Assembly: GCA_021775615.1 (NCBI GenBank)
Contig: JAJFHL010000171.1
Location: 9,282-73,281, forward strand
DNA length: 64,000 nt
Reading direction: 5' to 3'
Origin: Hyphomicrobiales bacterium
Lineage (GTDB): Bacteria; Pseudomonadota; Alphaproteobacteria; Rhizobiales; JAJFHB01
In this document: positions 16,451-23,986 of the stretch, in pieces
How positions within the stretch are numbered: position 1 is the stretch's first letter
How the letters are laid out: every line of letters begins with the position of its first letter
Made by a program: the position numbers and the translations under genes
Notes under the pieces: generated by a model
The model's database searches: none
The model's input: the letters and a program-made list of their open reading frames with translations, nothing else
Told to the model about the DNA's origin: nothing

Positions 16451-16912
16451 GTGAGGGGTTGCCCCGTCTCTGACACATCACCGAACACGAAAATCGTTCG
16501 CGCCGGCAGCGAGCACGACGCGGTCTGCGCGCGCTTGTGGGATGAGGCACTGCCTGAGATGTCGGCCGGCGCCGCTGCCGGGGAACCGCAGGATTTCATC
16601 GAGCAGACGGTCGGAGAAGACATCTTCCTGGCGATGGTCGATGGCAAGGCCGCCGGTTTTGTCTCGATCTGGCGGCCCGAGTCGTTCATCCACTTCCTGG
16701 TGGTGGACAAGACTTTCCGCCGACGCGGTGTCGGCAGCGACTTGTTGCGCCATGCCGTCGGCCAATTGGGAACGCCGGTCGAACTCAAATGCGAGGCTCA
16801 CAACCGCGCCGCCCAGGCGTTTTACGAACGGCACGGATGGCAAATCGTGGAGCGCATCGACAACGCCGGTCCGCCCCACATTCTCTATCGTCTCAACACC
16901 GTGTGCGCATAG
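16451..16912 (+). CDS. GNAT-family N-acetyltransferase
   Basis: Acetyl-CoA motif A FLVVDKTFRRRGVGSDLL and AQAFYERHGWQ; start (GTG directly after lpdA stop) uncertain. Confidence 0.7.
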   Translation: MRGCPVSDTSPNTKIVRAGSEHDAVCARLWDEALPEMSAGAAAGEPQDFIEQTVGEDIFLAMVDGKAAGFVSIWRPESFIHFLVVDKTFRRRGVGSDLLRHAVGQLGTPVELKCEAHNRAAQAFYERHGWQIVERIDNAGPPHILYRLNTVCA

Positions 16913-16918
16913 AGCGCT

Positions 16919-18004
16919 TCACTTCAGATCCGCGATCAGCTTTTCAAGCGTCTCGCGCCAGGGGGCGATCTCGAGCCCTTTCTCCTTCAGGAAGGCGTGG
17001 TTGAAGATGGTGTCTTCGTAGCGCTCGCCATGGTCGTAGCAGAAGGTAGCGATGAGCTGGCCCTCGCGGCGGTCCTTCATCTTCTGCAGCTCGGTGAGGG
17101 CGCCGAACATCGCCATGCCGGAGCTTGGGCCCATCTCGTAGTTGAACTCGTCCTTGAAGAAGTGGCAGACGGCGATGGCGGCTTCCTGGCGCACTTCGAG
17201 GAAGCGGTCGACCGATGTGCGGATGAAGGACGGCGGTACATAGCCGGGGCTGGCGCCTTCGAGGCAGTGTGAGGCGTCGGAACGTCCGTGCAGGTTGAGG
17301 CCGACATAGTCGGTCAGAATGCCGCCGGCAATGTCGACCCCGACAATGTCGAGATTGAGCTGCCGGTCAGACGCCGCGAAGCGCACCGTGTTGGCGGTGG
17401 TGCCGGTGCCGACCGCGGTCACCACCAGCGATGGCGTGCGACCGACCGCAACGCTGGTTGAGCGCAACATGCGTTCACCCGGCGAATGACGTGTCGGCAG
17501 GGCGCGGACCTCGGCGGAATACTGATCGATCACCGTGTAGCCCGGGCGGATGGTGTAGCTCGCCTCGAGATCGTGTGCGTCGGCCGGATTGTCGGCAACC
17601 GCGAGCTCGCCGCCATGGGCGGTGACGCGCTCCATGGCGGTTGCGGTCAGGTCCTTCGGCACGATGGCGGTGAAGGGCAGTTCCAGCCGGGCGCAGGCAT
17701 AGGCCATGGTTGCCGCCGCACTGCCGCAGGAGCGCTGCACCACGCGCATGCCGGGCTTGAGGGCGTTGCCCCTGAGCTTGAGCCGCAGCATTTCAAGCGC
17801 CAGCCACAGCTTGTTGCCTTCGCCCAGGCTCTGGCGTTCATCCACCAGCGCGATGTCGTTGCCGGTTCCCGATTCCAGCGACACCACTTTCGGCTGCGGA
17901 TTGGAGAGATGAACCTGCTCGATGAGACGCAGTTTTTCCGCCTGCCAGTGGCAGGTGTCGTTGTGAGCGGCCGGTCCGTTCCTGACCGTGCTTCGAATAC
18001 CCAT
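16919..18004 (-). CDS. fold-type II PLP-dependent enzyme, cysteine synthase/CBS family, divergent active-site motifs
   Basis: Aligns by eye to CysK: GEGNKLW (vs GGSVKDR, Lys conserved), LKPGMRVVQRSCGSAA (vs LKPG..TSGNTG), AVGTGTTANTV (vs GVGTGGT), GPSSGMAMFGA (vs G.SSGAA). Confidence 0.7.
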   Translation of the reverse strand: MGIRSTVRNGPAAHNDTCHWQAEKLRLIEQVHLSNPQPKVVSLESGTGNDIALVDERQSLGEGNKLWLALEMLRLKLRGNALKPGMRVVQRSCGSAAATMAYACARLELPFTAIVPKDLTATAMERVTAHGGELAVADNPADAHDLEASYTIRPGYTVIDQYSAEVRALPTRHSPGERMLRSTSVAVGRTPSLVVTAVGTGTTANTVRFAASDRQLNLDIVGVDIAGGILTDYVGLNLHGRSDASHCLEGASPGYVPPSFIRTSVDRFLEVRQEAAIAVCHFFKDEFNYEMGPSSGMAMFGALTELQKMKDRREGQLIATFCYDHGERYEDTIFNHAFLKEKGLEIAPWRETLEKLIADLK

Positions 18005-18194
18005 GGTCGTGCTTCCCTAGTGCTTCCTGCAGAGGATTTGGTGATCGCGGGCCCGGCGGCTAAAGCTCCGGAACTGCAGGCTTTATGGTAGGGGGGTGGC
18101 CGGGTGTGTCAATAAAAACTTTACGATAAATTTTACATTCTGAGGATGACGGGTTTTTGTTCCCGGAATCCAGTCACTTGGCGAAAGAGCGCCC

Positions 18195-19544
18195 TCAACC
18201 GACCTCTGGAAAAAGCGACATCCCGCGGCCGCCGGACATCAGATACTGGATGATCACGAAGGCGCTGGCATCGAGATGCATGGGTCCCGACAACTGCCGC
18301 ACGCGGACCGATATGGCGGGACCGGGATAGGGGATCGTCAGTTTCTGCCGGTCGGGCCGCGCGATGGTGGCGCTGCCGTTGTCCTGATCGACGATCGTTG
18401 CTTCGCGCAACAGGATCTCGAAATCTTCCGGCCCGAGCTTCATTTCGCCGAGGAGCTGTTCGAGCTGTTGCCACCGGCCGCTCTTGCAGCGCTTGCGCAT
18501 CTCGGTGTCGGCCTCATCGCGTATAATCCGCAGGCAGGTTTCGATGCAGGCCTCCTGCGAAGCAACGCGGTCTTCGCTTTCGGTCTCGATATCGGTGCCG
18601 CAAATGCGCGAGACATGGGTCTGCGAGCCCTCAAGACCGGTGGTTTCCAGATGGGCGGTGAGATGCTGTCTGACGCGCTCGGCGGGGCCGGCATCGGAAA
18701 ACTGGCTGGCCGCCCGGTCGGCAAAGTCGCGGGTCGCGAGCGCGGCGTCGATCGGCCGTTTCGAAGGCCCTCCCAGCACCACCAGTTCGAGCGACAGGAC
18801 CGGATCTCCGAGGCGCAGGGAAATCGGATTCGGGCTGGCATTGAAGAGCGCAAAGGCAAGCTCTCCTTCAAATCCCGGGTCGACCTGGAGTCCGTGCCCG
18901 AGAAAAAGGCCGAGATGGGAGAGACGCGCCATGGGGCCGACGCGAGCCATCATGTTGGCCGGCAGGCGGACGGTTTCCGCGGTCCAGGCGTGCGCGCATT
19001 CGAGCGGTGCGATCTCAATGGCGGCGCCTGCGCGCGCCTCGGACTGCCGCCCCAGGGCATCGACCCGGCCAAGGCTGAGGTCGAGCGAGGCGGCGTTGAT
19101 GTTCGCCTCTATATAGGGATCGATCGAAATCGTGCCGTCGCGAACGGCAGAATGGATTTCGTGATCGGTGAGGATCCGTGTCCGCCCCGCAGCGTCGCGA
19201 GCGACGTCGGCCGCGGAGGCCGGCTCATCGGGAACGGGATCTGGAAGGGGCGTGGCGTCGGATATCCGTTGCGATGCACGGCGGAATTGCTCGCGCAGCC
19301 AGAAGTCGGTCGGCTGGCCGAAGAGTTTGCCGAGCTTGGCCGACATGGCTCGCGAGATCGGCTGGCGGCCACGGACAATGGCGTTGATGGTCTGCCGCGA
19401 CACGCCGGTCAGCTCGGCCAGTTGAAGCTGGTCGAGGCCGCGCTGCTTGAGCTCGTTTTCGAGATGTTCCGCCGCAGAAAGAGCGTCGGCACCGGAGGCG
19501 ATGCCCTCCGCTGTTGCGCTGGTGCTGTCGGAATCTCGTGCCAC
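18195..19544 (-). CDS. three-domain fusion: HigA/XRE-type HTH + dCTP deaminase/dUTPase-fold domain (catalytic residues apparently replaced) + unknown C-terminal domain
   Basis: HTH: LAELTGVSRQTINAIVRGRQPISRAMSAKLGKLFGQPTDFWL; Dcd-fold: ILTDHEIHSAVRDGTISIDP, INAASLDLSLG, VDPGFEGELAFALFN, LRLGDPVLSLELV; last ~165 aa unrecognised. Confidence 0.7.
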   Translation of the reverse strand: MARDSDSTSATAEGIASGADALSAAEHLENELKQRGLDQLQLAELTGVSRQTINAIVRGRQPISRAMSAKLGKLFGQPTDFWLREQFRRASQRISDATPLPDPVPDEPASAADVARDAAGRTRILTDHEIHSAVRDGTISIDPYIEANINAASLDLSLGRVDALGRQSEARAGAAIEIAPLECAHAWTAETVRLPANMMARVGPMARLSHLGLFLGHGLQVDPGFEGELAFALFNASPNPISLRLGDPVLSLELVVLGGPSKRPIDAALATRDFADRAASQFSDAGPAERVRQHLTAHLETTGLEGSQTHVSRICGTDIETESEDRVASQEACIETCLRIIRDEADTEMRKRCKSGRWQQLEQLLGEMKLGPEDFEILLREATIVDQDNGSATIARPDRQKLTIPYPGPAISVRVRQLSGPMHLDASAFVIIQYLMSGGRGMSLFPEVG

Positions 19545-19719
19545 GCGACTGACTTTGCCCTGAAGATACGCCTTGTACTGTCAGGTATTTGGCGCAGCTC
19601 GGGCCGAGATTGTCAAGTTTTGCCCGTCAAATTGGTTTACAGGAGCGGGCGGAGCCCTTCGGAACACCGTGGTGTAGTGTTTTCGACTGATATTTGTCCG
19701 GCGTATTCACACACTCAGG

Positions 19720-19750
19720 TGTCTTTGCCCGGCTTGACCGGACGAAGACA
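19720..19750. repeat. short hairpin repeat related to the ends of the 37502..37621 element
   Basis: TGTCTTTGCCCGGCTTGACCGG is identical to 37502-37523, followed directly by ACGAAGACA (matches 37613-37621); forms an 8-bp stem; lies between comE stop and the HTH-Dcd gene. Confidence 0.6.
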
Positions 19751-19785
19751 ATTGAGGAGAGACGAGATTCTCTCAACAACGCCTG

Positions 19786-20358
19786 TCATGTCCCTCCGGA
19801 ATTGCGTGACGCAACCTCCGCCATGAAACGCTCGCGGATCAGGACCGGGTTCATTTCGATCACCGGCACGTCGATGTTTCCGGACTGGCATTTGGCGATG
19901 ATGATGGTCATGCGGTTGGCATCGAGCGCGTCCTGCAACGTTCCGGCGGTTTCTTCCGCCTCGCACTCGATGACGTGCTCGCAGCCGCAGGCGGTTGCGA
20001 CCTTGGCCAGCGACGTGCGCATGCCGGCATAGGTCGGCTGGTCGCCGGTCGAGCCATAGCTGCCATTGTCGATGATCAGGAGCACGAAGTTGTCGCTCGC
20101 ATTGTTGGCGATCGTCGCCAGGGTCGCCAGATTGGTGAGGACCGATCCGTCGCCCTCGATGGCGACGACCTTGCCGGGCTGGGCAAGGGCCAGGCCGAGC
20201 CCGATCGACGAACACAGGCCCATGGTGCCGAGCATATAGAAGTTGCTCGGGCGGTCGTCGAGCTGGAACAGTTCCTGGGACGGCAGGCCGATATTGCAGA
20301 TGACCAGTCGGTCGGTGATGACCGGGACAATCGACTTCAGGATTTCACTTCTGATCAT
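19786..20358 (-). CDS. comE: sulfopyruvate decarboxylase beta subunit-like (ThDP-binding C-terminal half; phosphonopyruvate decarboxylase not excluded)
   Basis: ThDP motif IEGDGSVLTNL...NN; ~190 aa; start ATG 20358 overlaps comD stop (TGATG). Confidence 0.7.
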   Translation of the reverse strand: MIRSEILKSIVPVITDRLVICNIGLPSQELFQLDDRPSNFYMLGTMGLCSSIGLGLALAQPGKVVAIEGDGSVLTNLATLATIANNASDNFVLLIIDNGSYGSTGDQPTYAGMRTSLAKVATACGCEHVIECEAEETAGTLQDALDANRMTIIIAKCQSGNIDVPVIEMNPVLIRERFMAEVASRNSGGT

Positions 20359-20861
20359 CACGCAGCCCTCCAGAAGCCGGCATCGGTGAGAATTGCGGTT
20401 GGTTTCCTGCACATCCAGGTGTGTTTCAGAATGCCGTCCAGTTCCTCGACGTCATCGCGGTGATGAAAGTGGAACGTCGGTATCGACAACTGGTCCAGCA
20501 GCGCCTTGGTGTGCAGCGCCATCTCGACCTGGCAGGCGACCTTCTCGCCCACTTCGCCGCGGTAGCTGATCAGCATGGGCAGAGGGATCTGGTAAAACTG
20601 AATGAGGGTGACCAGCGTATTGACCGTCACGCCGATCGCCGTGTTCTGCATGACGATGCAGGGCCGCTTGCCGCCCATATAGGCGCCGGCGCACAGGCCC
20701 ATGCCCTCGTCCTCCTTGTTCGAGGGGATGTGCAGAATGGCGTCGTGGTTCTCGATCGCCTCGATCACGCCGGCGAGTTGCTTGCACGGCACGGTCGTCA
20801 CGAAATCGATGTCGTTGTTCACCAGGTCGCCGACGATGCGACCGCTCAAGTCTGAAGACAC
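20358..20861 (-). CDS. comD: sulfopyruvate decarboxylase alpha subunit-like (ThDP pyrimidine-binding half)
   Basis: 167 aa, VTTVPCKQLAGVIEA...NKEDEGMGLCAGAYMGGKRPCIVMQNTAIG; split-subunit arrangement with the following gene. Confidence 0.7.
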   Translation of the reverse strand: MSSDLSGRIVGDLVNNDIDFVTTVPCKQLAGVIEAIENHDAILHIPSNKEDEGMGLCAGAYMGGKRPCIVMQNTAIGVTVNTLVTLIQFYQIPLPMLISYRGEVGEKVACQVEMALHTKALLDQLSIPTFHFHHRDDVEELDGILKHTWMCRKPTAILTDAGFWRAA

Positions 20862-21052
20862 GTTCGAACCTCCTCATGTGTAACCGGCGCGCCGGCGGAG
20901 CGCGATACGCCCGGTTGCCCGTAGGCGGGGTTGTCAAGAGTTCCGCCGGCCGTCGCTTGGGGCGGGCCGGCCGGCGGATCTGGATGGTGGTCGGTCGCCC
21001 GACGTGGATGCGTTGCGGCGGGGGAGAAGAAGAAGACCGCCGGTGTCGCGTC

Positions 21053-22045
21053 CTACTGCGCTTTCTCGTAGAAGCTGGAGTCCACGGTCGAACCGTAGTC
21101 ATCAAGGGCCTTCGAAATCTTGCCTTGCTGCTGGAAAAAGTCAGCCACTTCCTTGAGAAAGAGCTGAACGCCGCCTTCCATCCAACGTTCGCTCAACTGG
21201 TCGTCACGGGTGTAAAAGTCGAACAGGGACAACACGATGTCTGAGTCCCTCTCCGCAAGCCCCGCCGCCTTGGCGATCACCGGCTTGGCCTTGTCCGGCT
21301 CGTCTGCGAGGAACTCGATGGACCTGTCAGTGACCGCCAGAAACTTGGTCACGAGGTCGCCGTGGTCCCTGGCGAAGTCGTTGGTCACCGCGATGACGTC
21401 AAAGGCCCGGATGCCGAGCCGGTCCTGCTCGTTGGCCGACAGCAGTTCCCAGCCCTGACCCTTCATGCGGCGCAGCGGCCCGCCCCACGAGCAGCCCATC
21501 GCCAGCTCGCCGCGCAGGAAAGCGTCGTCGATGTCGTGCGGCGACATGTCGATCACATCGAGCTTGGCGACATCGACGCCAAGGAAGACCAGGGAGCGCA
21601 GCATCTTGTAGTGAGTCACCGTGTTAAGCGGCACCGCGACCTTGCGGCCTTCCAGTTCATGGGCGTTGGCGCGGTCGATGGCTTCCTTCTTGTAGATGAC
21701 GCAGTTGTCGGCGCCGCCGGTGTCGACCGCAACACCCACCACTTTGATCGGTGCGCCATCGGTGACAGCAAGGGCGAAGGGAACGACGCCCATGGAAAAG
21801 GAGATCTGAACTTCACCGGCGACCATGGCCTCGGCCATTTCGACGCCGGTGTTGTAGGCGCGCCATTCGATCTCGACGCCCAGTTCCTTGTCGTACCACT
21901 TCTCGGCCTGGGCCACCTGATTGGCGGTCGGCCATTCCTTGAAATAGGCGACAGTGATCTTGTCCTGCGCCGCAGCGGGGGCCGGAGCGGCCACAGTCCA
22001 CAAAGCTGACGTCAGGGCGAGTATCGACAGCAAGATCCTGTTCAT
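21053..22045 (-). CDS. TauA-like (taurine/NitT family) periplasmic substrate-binding protein, no cognate ABC permease/ATPase in window
   Basis: Signal peptide; ITVAYFKEWPTANQVAQAEKWYDKELGVEIEWRAYNTGVEMAEAMVAGEVQI aligns by eye to E. coli TauA N-terminal lobe. Confidence 0.7.
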   Translation of the reverse strand: MNRILLSILALTSALWTVAAPAPAAAQDKITVAYFKEWPTANQVAQAEKWYDKELGVEIEWRAYNTGVEMAEAMVAGEVQISFSMGVVPFALAVTDGAPIKVVGVAVDTGGADNCVIYKKEAIDRANAHELEGRKVAVPLNTVTHYKMLRSLVFLGVDVAKLDVIDMSPHDIDDAFLRGELAMGCSWGGPLRRMKGQGWELLSANEQDRLGIRAFDVIAVTNDFARDHGDLVTKFLAVTDRSIEFLADEPDKAKPVIAKAAGLAERDSDIVLSLFDFYTRDDQLSERWMEGGVQLFLKEVADFFQQQGKISKALDDYGSTVDSSFYEKAQ

Positions 22046-22119
22046 CTTGTTTCCCTCAGTGGTTTGTGTTCGCCCATCGCCCGGGCCGCCGTCTGCGGCC
22101 GCCGGGTGGCGCCTCGCTC

Positions 22120-22614
22120 TCAGGAGGCGCCGTGAAGGGGAACGATCATTGTCGGCACTGGCGCGCGGCGAAGCACGCTCTTCGACACCGACCCCAGAAA
22201 TGTGTGGGCGATGCCCCGCTCGTGCGATCCCATGATGATGAGGTCGCAGTTGTGCTCCTTGGCCGACTTGAGAATTTCATCCGCCGGGTATGACTCGCAA
22301 ACCGTCGTCGATTTGACCTTGTCGCGCAGTTTGCGGTCCTCTTCGCTCTGCGCGGCCCAGAAAGCTTCCTGCCTTTCGTCGAGCAGCTTGCGGGCGTTTT
22401 CGACCCGCAGGTCCAGGATGTCGTGGCGCTTGTCGCCGCTCTGGATGTAGGTCTGCAGCGTAAACGCGGCGTCGTCGGAGAGTTTCTCCAGGACGTGCAG
22501 CACATGAACGTCCGCTCCGGTCAGCCTGGCCATGAACATGGCGTAGCTGAACGCGGCATTGGAGTTCTGCGACAGATCGGTGCAGTAGAGCAGGTTCTTT
22601 ATTGCGTGTTGCAT
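22120..22614 (-). CDS. universal stress protein (UspA family)
   Basis: From ATG 22614: LYCTDLS...VHVLHV...CDLIIMGSHERG...LGSVSKSVLRRAPVPTMIV (Usp ATP-binding G-2x-G-9x-G(S/T)). Confidence 0.8.
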   Translation of the reverse strand: MQHAIKNLLYCTDLSQNSNAAFSYAMFMARLTGADVHVLHVLEKLSDDAAFTLQTYIQSGDKRHDILDLRVENARKLLDERQEAFWAAQSEEDRKLRDKVKSTTVCESYPADEILKSAKEHNCDLIIMGSHERGIAHTFLGSVSKSVLRRAPVPTMIVPLHGAS

Positions 22615-22645
22615 CGTTACATACCTCGTTGAGCGAGTGTGCCGC

Positions 22646-23986
22646 TCAGTATCCAAAGAACCGCGGCAGCCACAGGACGATCTCCGGGAAGAAGGCGATG
22701 ATGAAGATCGCCACCGCATTGATCGCCGCGAAGGGCAGCGCCTTGATCGATATCTCCTCGATGGAGATGTTTGAGATGCCCGAGGCGATGAACAGATTCT
22801 CGCCAAGCGGCGGGGTCTGGAAGCCGATGCCGAGAGAACAGACCATCACGACACCGAAGTGCACCGGATCGATGCCGAGGCTGTAGGCGATCGGCAGCAG
22901 CACCGGGGTCAGAATGAGAATGGTCGCCAGCGTCTCCATGAACATGCCGACAAACAACAGGAACAAGATCAGCATGGTCCAGATGAAGTAGATGTTGTCG
23001 GTGGCGCTCAGCATGGCCTCGGCAATGATCGCCGGGATCTGGTTTTCCACCAGGAGGCGGCCGAACACGGTTGCGGTGAACAGGATCAGGAGCACACGGC
23101 CGGTGAGCCAGGTTGTGGTCTCAAGCGACCGCACCAGGGCTGCAAAGTCGAGCTCGCGATAGATGAAGAAGCCGACGAACAGCGTGTAGAAGATGGCCAC
23201 GATGGCGGCTTCGGTCGGTGTGAAGAAGCCGGAATAGATGCCGCCAAGGATGACCAGCGGCGCCAGCAGCGCCCAGATTGCCCGGTAAATCACGCACAGG
23301 CTGTTGCGTGCCGAAAAACCTTCGGCCGACCCGCTGTAGCCGCGTTTCTTGCAGACGATGTAGTTCATGATCAGGAGGCTGAAGGAGATCAACAGACCCG
23401 GCAGAACACCGGCGATGAACAGTTTCGGGATCGAGACCGACTGGAAGACACCGAACTTCTCAACCGCTTCGGGCGGCGGTTGCATGCCGAGTGCAGAAAT
23501 CCCGAAGATCACCATTGGGATCGAGGGAGGAATAATGATCCCGAGGCTGCCCGACGAAGCGGTAATGGCCGAAGCGATACCCTTGTCGTAGCCCCGATCG
23601 ATCATCGCCGGGATCATCAGCATGCCAACCGCCGCCGTCGTGGCCGGGCCGGACCCGGAAATCGCACCGAAGAAGAGGCAGGCGAAGACGGTTGCCGCGG
23701 ACATGCCGCCGGTGAAGGGGCCGGCCATGCTTTCCGCGACGTTCACGAGGCGCCGCGATATGCCTGCGGCTTCCATTAGGGCGCCGGCGAGAATAAATGC
23801 CGGCAGAGCCATCAGCGGGAAGGACCCGACCGAGGTGAAGGCGATCTGCACGAACTTGATCGGGTTCTCGTCGAGATAGAGGAACGAGATCAGCGCCGAT
23901 ACGCCGAGCGCGACCGTGATCGGTGCGCCAATCAGCAGGAGCACCAGAAATGTTCCAAACAAAATCAGGACAATTGTCGTTTCCAT
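22646..23986 (-). CDS. TRAP transporter large permease (DctM family)
   Basis: 446 aa polytopic membrane protein with DctM-family sequence throughout. Confidence 0.9.
   Translation of the reverse strand: METTIVLILFGTFLVLLLIGAPITVALGVSALISFLYLDENPIKFVQIAFTSVGSFPLMALPAFILAGALMEAAGISRRLVNVAESMAGPFTGGMSAATVFACLFFGAISGSGPATTAAVGMLMIPAMIDRGYDKGIASAITASSGSLGIIIPPSIPMVIFGISALGMQPPPEAVEKFGVFQSVSIPKLFIAGVLPGLLISFSLLIMNYIVCKKRGYSGSAEGFSARNSLCVIYRAIWALLAPLVILGGIYSGFFTPTEAAIVAIFYTLFVGFFIYRELDFAALVRSLETTTWLTGRVLLILFTATVFGRLLVENQIPAIIAEAMLSATDNIYFIWTMLILFLLFVGMFMETLATILILTPVLLPIAYSLGIDPVHFGVVMVCSLGIGFQTPPLGENLFIASGISNISIEEISIKALPFAAINAVAIFIIAFFPEIVLWLPRFFGY

Follow-up and report, generated by a model that had tools for sequence, protein, structure and literature searches.

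The DNA analysed here is a 64-kb stretch of a Hyphomicrobiales genome (contig JAJFHL010000171.1), called the window below. Positions 18195..19544 (−) hold an open reading frame (ORF) of 449 amino acids (aa) with a GTG start, in which a helix-turn-helix (HTH) domain is followed by a domain resembling dCTP deaminase (Dcd) and by a C-terminal domain. The exact start is uncertain because the first ~25 residues are variable. We call it the regulator gene, after the role that we propose for it. The next gene on the same strand, 16919..18004 (−), encodes a divergent pyridoxal phosphate (PLP) enzyme of the CysK/CBS family (361 aa) and is a predicted target of the regulator. In the text, L-numbers denote the loci that were compared, and P-numbers denote database proteins.

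The initial annotation of this gene, made from the sequence alone, proposed the domain order HTH, Dcd/dUTPase barrel, and extra domain. Pfam, matches to PDB sequences, and an AlphaFold2 (AF2) model compared by Foldseek all support this order. The full-length monomer model, built on an alignment of 16 homologues, has a mean predicted local distance difference test score (pLDDT) of 74, and low confidence is restricted to residues 1–20, 89–119, and 269–284. The XRE/HigA-like HTH covers residues 27–90 (19275..19466 (−)), where a HigA/VapI-type domain had been claimed. Pfam HTH_3 spans residues 30–81 (8e-10). The NCBIfam HigA model TIGR02607 gives 40.2 bits, under its cutoff of 47.7; the family threshold is not reached, but the HTH itself is clear. 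A linker, residues 91–120 (19185..19274 (−)), is disordered (pLDDT <50 at residues 89–119) and fast-evolving.

The Dcd/dUTPase-fold beta-barrel occupies residues 121–265 (18750..19184 (−)) and carries the family signature HGxQxDPGFxG. The Pfam model DCD (PF22769, 'dCTP deaminase-like') spans residues 124–249 with 6e-18 and 65.8 bits, against a cutoff of 27. The NCBIfam model dCTP_deam (TIGR02274) gives 67.6 bits, which is under its cutoff of 92.8. Both folds are thus present, yet the protein lies outside both named families, since its NCBIfam HigA and Dcd scores are under the cutoffs. The best matches among PDB sequences are the archaeal dUTPases 9ln0 and 8y1w (155–156 aa; 1.5e-13), followed by Dcd and Dcd-dUTPase enzymes. 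When the middle part of the AF2 model was compared with Dcd/dUTPase structures by Foldseek, E values of ~1e-10 and target-normalised TM-scores of 0.64–0.80 were obtained, with 0.77–0.80 for the two archaeal dUTPases. The fold that had been assigned to residues ~120–285 is therefore confirmed by both profile search and structure comparison.

The catalytic positions of this barrel were read from an alignment of 108 HTH-linked relatives with the bona fide Dcd proteins P0168–P0170 and with E. coli Dcd. The residue numbers are those of E. coli Dcd and were checked against P0168–P0170. PDB entries for the mutants E138A and E138D confirm E138 as a studied catalytic position, and P0168–P0170 have a Glu there. 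The query has Ala, and a Glu is never found among the 108 relatives (28 Thr, 27 Ser, 23 Cys, 9 Arg, 7 Ala, and others). The position of R110 is Met in the query and never Arg in the relatives (53 Met, 28 Thr, 13 Ile, and others). S111 is replaced by Ala (relatives: 43 Thr, 39 Ala, 16 Ser) and R115 by His (34 Arg, 18 Lys, 13 His). The C-terminal lid (Y171/K178/Q182) is missing from the query and from the relatives, the lid columns being empty or non-matching. What is retained is the motif-1 Asp (in the query and 97 of the 108 relatives), the deoxyribose-binding hairpin D128-P-G-(F/Y)-x-G, and N141; the last two are kept in the query and are essentially invariant. The residue at R126 is Gln in the query and in 84/108 relatives and is family-specific. 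Relative to 9ln0 and 8y1w, the phosphate motif RSS...R reads MAR...H in the query, and the motif-3 Asp is kept as D222.

The loss of deaminase residues that had been claimed thus holds at four positions (R110→M, S111→A, R115→H, E138→A) and in the absent lid. The missing Glu is in itself no proof of an inert domain, because the archaeal dUTPases, which are the nearest solved relatives and true enzymes, also lack it. Judged from the alignment, the loss of Arg110 and the lid is a stronger argument against nucleotide-triphosphate chemistry than the missing Glu, and dCTP deamination by this protein is not expected. An ordinary Dcd with an N-terminal extension was considered and rejected: the score is under the family cutoff, and the catalytic Glu, the Arg, and the lid are all absent.

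The C-terminal domain, residues 266–449 (18198..18749 (−)), had been described as ~165 unrecognised residues. No known family was indeed matched: searches with the C-terminal 185 aa found nothing significant in Pfam, in PHROGs, or, by profile, among the PDB sequences. The region does, however, resolve into two alpha-beta-beta-beta-alpha modules connected by a long helix when modelled alone by AF2 (pLDDT 85, predicted template modelling score 0.79). Foldseek searches of this model against the PDB and BFVD gave nothing significant (best E 0.03–0.1). There is weak partial likeness to folds of the double-stranded RNA-binding domain, HicA, and HicB-N types; the match to 2dsy, for example, has a probability of 0.98 but an E value of 0.2 and is a lead only. 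The tandem alpha/beta domain is an accessory module, absent from many relatives. Weak matches to MarR-type HTH models were obtained at the very end of one distant relative, P0110.

Against the orthologue at L003 (81% identity, dS 0.78), the whole gene has a ratio of nonsynonymous to synonymous substitutions (dN/dS) of 0.16. By part, the ratio is lowest for the HTH (0.05; 94% identity), followed by the Dcd-like domain (0.10) and the C-terminal domain (0.17), and it reaches 0.64 in the linker. The full range is 0.05–0.3 in the three folded domains versus 0.55–0.86 in the linker. By this measure, purifying selection acts on all three folded domains.

An exhaustive profile search of 1.84 billion representatives returned 123 clusters (50% identity) below 1e-30, most of which are HTH + Dcd-like proteins. 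Word-index searches badly under-reported the family (17 close homologues in one search, then 7). The clusters comprise two forms, one of 400–490 aa with the C-terminal extension and one of ~280–300 aa without it. Some members carry JGI automatic names such as 'deoxycytidine triphosphate deaminase/addiction module HigA family antidote' or 'dCTP deaminase'; the NCBI name is 'helix-turn-helix domain-containing protein'. Literature searches found no paper on the HTH + Dcd-like architecture. The earlier statement that no characterised protein has this domain order can therefore be kept as regards characterisation, but the order is not unique, being found in ~120 clusters at 50% identity. The 'DCD' of defence papers was rejected as the same domain, since those papers concern an unrelated one.

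A scan of 185,579 species genomes, keyed to the HTH sequence of the window clade, found 27 loci. All those with a finer assignment are Hyphomicrobiales (Pseudolabrys, Undibacter, and metagenome-assembled genomes (MAGs)); the others are labelled only as proteobacteria. In the Pseudolabrys-type clade (clade 2), the gene is invariably bordered by hslU on one side and smr-mltA-tim44 on the other; this was seen at 24 loci from genomes and at most of 80 from metagenomes (the metagenome scan used a narrower alignment and returned mostly one syntenic locus type). The gene is 46–78% identical between these loci, whereas hslU is ~90% identical. This fixed position and these identities indicate vertical inheritance combined with fast evolution. 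Complete ORFs in this clade are bimodal in length, at ~230–285 aa (HTH + Dcd-like only) and 411–455 aa. No full-length homologue was found by tblastn in 72,556 plasmids or 50,697 phage records, where only separate Dcd or HigA genes were matched. In three Pseudolabrys MAGs (L028, L029, L030), the tblastn match to the regulator looks split or truncated, and at L029 only the first ~130 residues are left before smr. These matches suggest occasional loss of the regulator.

Conserved operator-like elements are found at two promoters in the window. The first, TGTAAAccaatTTGACGggcaaaacTTGACA (19611..19641 (−)), precedes the regulator gene and was recognised by a pattern search and as a conserved block in diverged intergenic DNA. 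It is conserved among the window, L003, L004, L046, L047, and L045, and the intergenic DNA around it has diverged. It includes the predicted −35 hexamer TTGACA of the regulator gene (19611-19616 (−)), the inner pair TGACGG-N7-TTGACA (19611-19629 (−)), and the TTGAC-N9-TTGACA direct repeat (19611-19630 (−)). This repeat had already been noticed upstream of the gene, and it is conserved in the orthologous loci. The second element, TGTAAAatttatCGTAAAgtttttaTTGACA (18107..18137 (−)), is the promoter/operator element of the PLP gene and is conserved in 7 orthologous loci. A promoter scan placed a −35 TTGACA at 18107-18112 (−) and, after a 16-nt spacer, a predicted −10 TACCAT at 18085..18090 (−), with 10/12 consensus matches. 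TACCAT is invariant in L003, L004, L046, L047, and L045. Several PLP promoters also have two or three TGTAAA direct repeats, at 12–14 bp spacing, upstream of the palindrome. The pattern TGTAAA-N19-TTGACA is common to both promoters, and these are its sole two matches in the window on both strands with one mismatch allowed (0.04 expected); this statistic is partly circular, because the pattern was derived from those two sites. Independent support comes from other lineages.

Across lineages, the core is a pseudo-palindrome, TGWMAA-N7-TTKACA, that lies over the −35 hexamer. There are 45 distinct sites of this form in 1.05 Mb (120 loci), against 0.3 expected from shuffles, and every site located flanks the regulator gene. 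In the Pseudolabrys-type loci, one TGACAA-N7-TTTACA lies ~65 nt upstream of the regulator start in at least 20 loci, followed by an ATAAAT −10 hexamer and a GAGGAG ribosome-binding site. No further copy of the palindrome was present within 10 kb on either side in these loci. In short-form loci, TGACAA-N7-TTGACA lies 9 nt past the regulator stop codon and precedes a small conserved ORF. Perfect or near-perfect palindromes precede the downstream gene at L001, L005, L047, and L064. The recognition helices of the clades that share the palindrome are nearly identical (GVSRQTINAIVRGRQPIS and GVSRQSINNIVNGRQPIS). A palindrome over the predicted own −35 hexamer, as in a putative autoregulated XRE-family repressor, is thus found in the clade-2 loci and, in degenerate form, in the window. 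The occurrence of the same element at non-homologous promoters (those of the regulator, the PLP gene, and the small ORF) fits the prediction for an autoregulated local repressor.

The PLP gene directly follows the regulator on the same strand in all seven loci of the window clade (clade 1: window, L003, L004, L001, L045, L046, and L047), and the outer neighbours of the pair vary on both sides. Upstream are comDE, or an xerC-like gene with a small secreted protein, or patatin, or an acyltransferase gene; downstream are GNAT, lpd, an FGE-sulfatase gene, or SDR, GST, and FMO genes. In a third lineage (L058–L060), a regulator of 34% identity is followed by a CysK-like gene 25% identical to that of the window, and the pair adjoins hslVU. 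The best NCBIfam match of the enzyme is Cds1, with 112 bits where the cutoff is 600, and the enzyme is far under every NCBIfam cutoff for the named CysK, CBS, SbnA, or cysteate-synthase families. It matches PDB cysteine synthases at ~4e-16, and Pfam PALP was matched among the genes neighbouring the regulator. K65 aligns with what we take, on our own reading of the sequence, to be the PLP lysine of CysK. The enzyme also matches the phage family phrog_11528 (1.7e-21). CysK partners dock through a C-terminal Ile. Docking of the regulator C-terminus to CysK was dropped as an idea, since no regulator in the alignment ends in Ile.

The small ORF (60–110 aa) is conserved directly downstream of the regulator in the hslU-smr lineages (L002:7863-8123, with equivalents in L051, L053–L056, L065–L075, and L094–L116). 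It has the motif D.E..L.IW(L/I)G(I/L)SRL(R/M)E(K/R) and basic tails, and it has no Pfam match. It is a second predicted target because the operator palindrome precedes it in short-form loci.

Upstream of the regulator, window positions 19786-23986 hold comE/comD (sulfopyruvate decarboxylase, over the NCBIfam cutoffs), a TauA/SsuA-like binding protein, a universal stress protein, and a TRAP DctM permease. This looks like a cluster for organosulfonate uptake and catabolism. The comD and comE ORFs as listed overlap by 55 nt, so the longest-ORF start of comE is probably too far upstream. Two stem-loops lie past the comE stop codon (19705..19790 (−); inverted repeats, dG −33.8 kcal/mol, z −4.0). 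The hairpin repeat that had been placed between the regulator and comDE (19720-19750) is therefore real, but its simplest reading is a comDE terminator, and it is probably outside the unit of the regulator. The stem-loops are absent from the L003 locus, and 16800-20000 has no Rfam match. In the window's clade, a small secreted-looking protein recurs, either upstream of the regulator or at another place in the locus (L003:1097-1354, L004:1561-1803, L046:5471-5713, L047:5411-5713, L001:7540-7950). It has a signal peptide followed by a GG(D/N)CPF motif and ends in a low-complexity tail.

We propose that the protein is an autoregulated XRE-family repressor with an enzyme-derived sensor or oligomerisation domain, and we put the probability of this at about 0.6. 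The N-terminal HTH would bind the ~19-bp pseudo-palindrome TGWMAA-N7-TTKACA, with extra TGTAAA-type repeats 12–14 bp upstream. The bound site would overlap the −35 hexamers of two promoters, the regulator's own and that of the downstream PLP enzyme gene, and we infer that binding would repress both. In the central ex-enzyme domain, the barrel and the hairpin that binds deoxyribose and base are kept, but the deaminase Glu, the lid, and the Arg that binds phosphate are gone. The domain would most likely serve as an oligomerisation module, the fold being an obligate trimer or hexamer, and most likely also as a ligand-sensing module that tunes DNA binding. As a first guess, the ligand may be a pyrimidine (deoxy)nucleoside or a nucleotide-like compound. 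The initial annotation had offered a transcription factor with a Dcd barrel as sensor as one of two hypotheses, and it is this one that the operator-like palindromes, the conserved gene pair, and vertical inheritance at fixed positions favour. A doubtful elaboration is that a trimeric or hexameric ex-Dcd barrel presents at least three XRE HTHs to 3–4 hexamer repeats (TGTAAA/YGTAAA/TTGACA, 12–14 bp spacing). The ligand of its remodelled pocket might then be a pyrimidine (deoxy)nucleoside, a nucleotide, or a pyrimidinyl compound with a link to the paired CysK-like enzyme, and the same module might act as an immunity or island regulator in mobile islands. CysK-type enzymes are able to make beta-substituted alanines such as uracilyl-alanine.

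Several points weigh against a repressor of this kind. A canonical deoxynucleoside triphosphate ligand is doubtful because the phosphate-binding residues are lost, and palindromes are not usually recognised by an HTH on a trimeric scaffold. Orthologous operator sites are not independent observations. Part of their conservation is ordinary promoter conservation, because the operator includes the −35 consensus, and the own-promoter site of the window is a degenerate copy with two mismatches to the strict pattern. The PLP gene is absent from many lineages that carry the regulator and so is not a universal target. The remaining points come from three distant relatives on long contigs and from the literature, and they count for an immunity function. 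At L031, a distant relative adjoins a HigBA-like pair. At L033:494-7149, a distant HTH-Dcd-like gene stands beside a dCMP/cytidine deaminase gene, a 245-aa Dcd/dUTPase-like gene, and DNA methylase, PRTase-CE, and ORC/Cdc6-like genes, in what looks like a nucleotide-centred defence-type island. The integrase-bounded island L128:786-12824 holds the distant member P0094, several unknown genes, a NUDIX gene, and a HipBA pair. A dUTPase domain is also among the unvalidated predicted defence domains of PMC13092281. These contexts keep alive the second hypothesis of the initial annotation, a defence or toxin-antitoxin (TA) fusion, for which this gene itself offers no direct support. On this view, the gene would be an immunity, abortive-infection, or TA-like element made up of one protein or two genes; its HTH would serve autoregulation only, with the Dcd-like domain as effector or phage sensor. 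It could act by binding or depleting deoxynucleotides, or by detecting phage dUTPase/Dcd through mixed trimers. The HTH is HigA-like, the gene evolves faster than the flanking core genes (hslU among them), and Glu-less Dcd-like domains occur on IMG/VR contigs fused to transmembrane helices or a P-loop kinase, all of which fit such a role. We nevertheless consider it unlikely. The gene is inherited vertically at fixed core-genome positions in the window's lineage and in Pseudolabrys, and full-length homologues are missing from the plasmid and phage records. The residues for deamination and triphosphate binding are gone, and the second operator-like site precedes a metabolic-type enzyme gene. 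There is no toxin partner: as had been claimed, no HigB/RelE-type ORF lies beside the gene, either in the window or at 7 orthologous loci; its neighbours are comDE, xerC-like, or other genes upstream and the PLP enzyme gene downstream. A HigBA module was rejected on this ground and on the sub-threshold HigA score. PADLOC-DB v2 gave weak matches in the HTH region only (RmrA, PDC-M69A, capH), and the Dcd-like and C-terminal parts of the query and six relatives matched no model; with only separate Dcd or HigA genes found by tblastn in plasmids and phages, a known defence system was rejected as well.

Equally improbable, in our judgement, is a bifunctional enzyme-repressor like BirA, NadR, or PutA, in which the barrel would be catalytic through a rebuilt active site (H217, Q220, E253, R201) and its substrate or product would be the co-repressor. 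The activity could be a nucleotide pyrophosphatase or something new. The nearest solved relatives, 9ln0 and 8y1w, are true dUTPases without the deaminase Glu, the motif-1 Asp and the DPG(F/Y)xG Asp are invariant or nearly so, several family-specific polar residues are conserved as well, and a dN/dS of 0.10 indicates strong purifying selection on the Dcd-like domain. Some relatives also retain Ser/Thr111, Arg/Lys115, and the PYxGxY lid motif. Set against this, Arg110 is absent in 108/108 relatives, and the window's clade also lacks Ser111, Arg115, and the equivalents of the lid residues Y171/K178/Q182. The archaeal dUTPases, unlike the query, retain RSS...R, and the NCBIfam Dcd score is well under the family cutoff. 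A decaying or non-functional fusion of a HigA gene with a dcd gene, akin to a pseudogene, would account for the lost catalytic residues, for the many short forms, and for the orthologues that look truncated or split (L028–L030). We regard this as very improbable: the reading frame is intact in dozens of lineages, family-specific residues are invariant, and the promoter and operator-like elements are conserved. The contrast in dN/dS between folded domains and linker already contradicts decay.

The viral contigs contain related proteins of other architectures. At L035–L043 (IMG/VR contigs; for example, L036:6665-7342), proteins of ~225 aa have a Glu-less Dcd-like domain that retains RS..R and PYxGxYQ, followed by a coiled coil and a C-terminal transmembrane helix. 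P0150, P0162, and P0166 are related double-Dcd membrane proteins. The representatives tested (L036, P0150, and P0162) had no PADLOC match. On another viral contig, L044:9320-10741 encodes a P-loop kinase-like domain fused to a Dcd-like domain and a transmembrane helix. Together with the mobile-island relatives, these Glu-less fusions hint that the fold may be used more widely, in non-enzymatic or immune roles.

For the proposed repressor, the new element is a concrete, directly testable regulatory model with a predicted operator, predicted targets (the CysK-like enzyme or the conserved small protein), and a gene pair, in a family of ~120 clusters. If true, it raises a structural question, namely how DNA repeats can be read by a scaffold with three-fold symmetry. 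The automatic name 'dCTP deaminase' is almost certainly wrong for such proteins, and this matters for the metabolic reconstruction of soil Hyphomicrobiales.

The protein shares with the nucleotide-depleting anti-phage enzymes, namely the dCTP deaminase of Tal et al. (bioRxiv 10.1101/2021.04.26.441389) and AvcD, a link to deoxycytidine nucleotide chemistry. The architecture of L044 is reminiscent of these kinase-deaminase defence enzymes. They use a zinc-dependent cytidine-deaminase fold, whereas L044 has a beta-barrel in its place, and the protein described here has the beta-barrel Dcd fold without catalytic residues. With the HigA/VapI antitoxins (TIGR02607), it shares the HTH sequence type and, as predicted here from sequence, probable autoregulation through a palindromic operator over its own promoter. 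Those antitoxins are ~100 aa long, compared with 449 aa here. The protein also differs from HigA in having no HigB partner, a sub-cutoff score, and a second predicted operator at a neighbouring enzyme gene. With Dcd and the Dcd-type archaeal dUTPases (PDB 1xs1, 2qxx, 9ln0, 8y1w), it shares the beta-barrel fold, the motif-1 Asp, the DPG(F/Y)xG hairpin, and the Asn that follows. The archaeal dUTPases of this type are homotrimers whose active sites lie between subunits. Unlike Dcd, the protein described here lacks Glu138, Arg110, Ser111, Arg115, and the lid, and it is fused to an HTH and a 185-aa domain.

Transcription factors with enzyme folds include PurR of B. subtilis (an inactive phosphoribosyltransferase fold that senses phosphoribosyl pyrophosphate), BirA, NadR, and NrdR (with an ATP-cone nucleotide sensor). 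To our knowledge, a Dcd/dUTPase barrel has not been described as the sensor of a transcription factor. In these transcription factors, as in the regulator proposed here, a DNA-binding domain is coupled to a domain that is or was an enzyme, and the small molecule read by that domain sets the repression of nearby genes. They have no homology to the protein described here, which is expected to be built on a trimeric scaffold. Retired-enzyme regulators with the logic of PurR, NrdR, or BirA show how cells read metabolite pools, and the Dcd/dUTPase barrel would add a new sensor fold to them.

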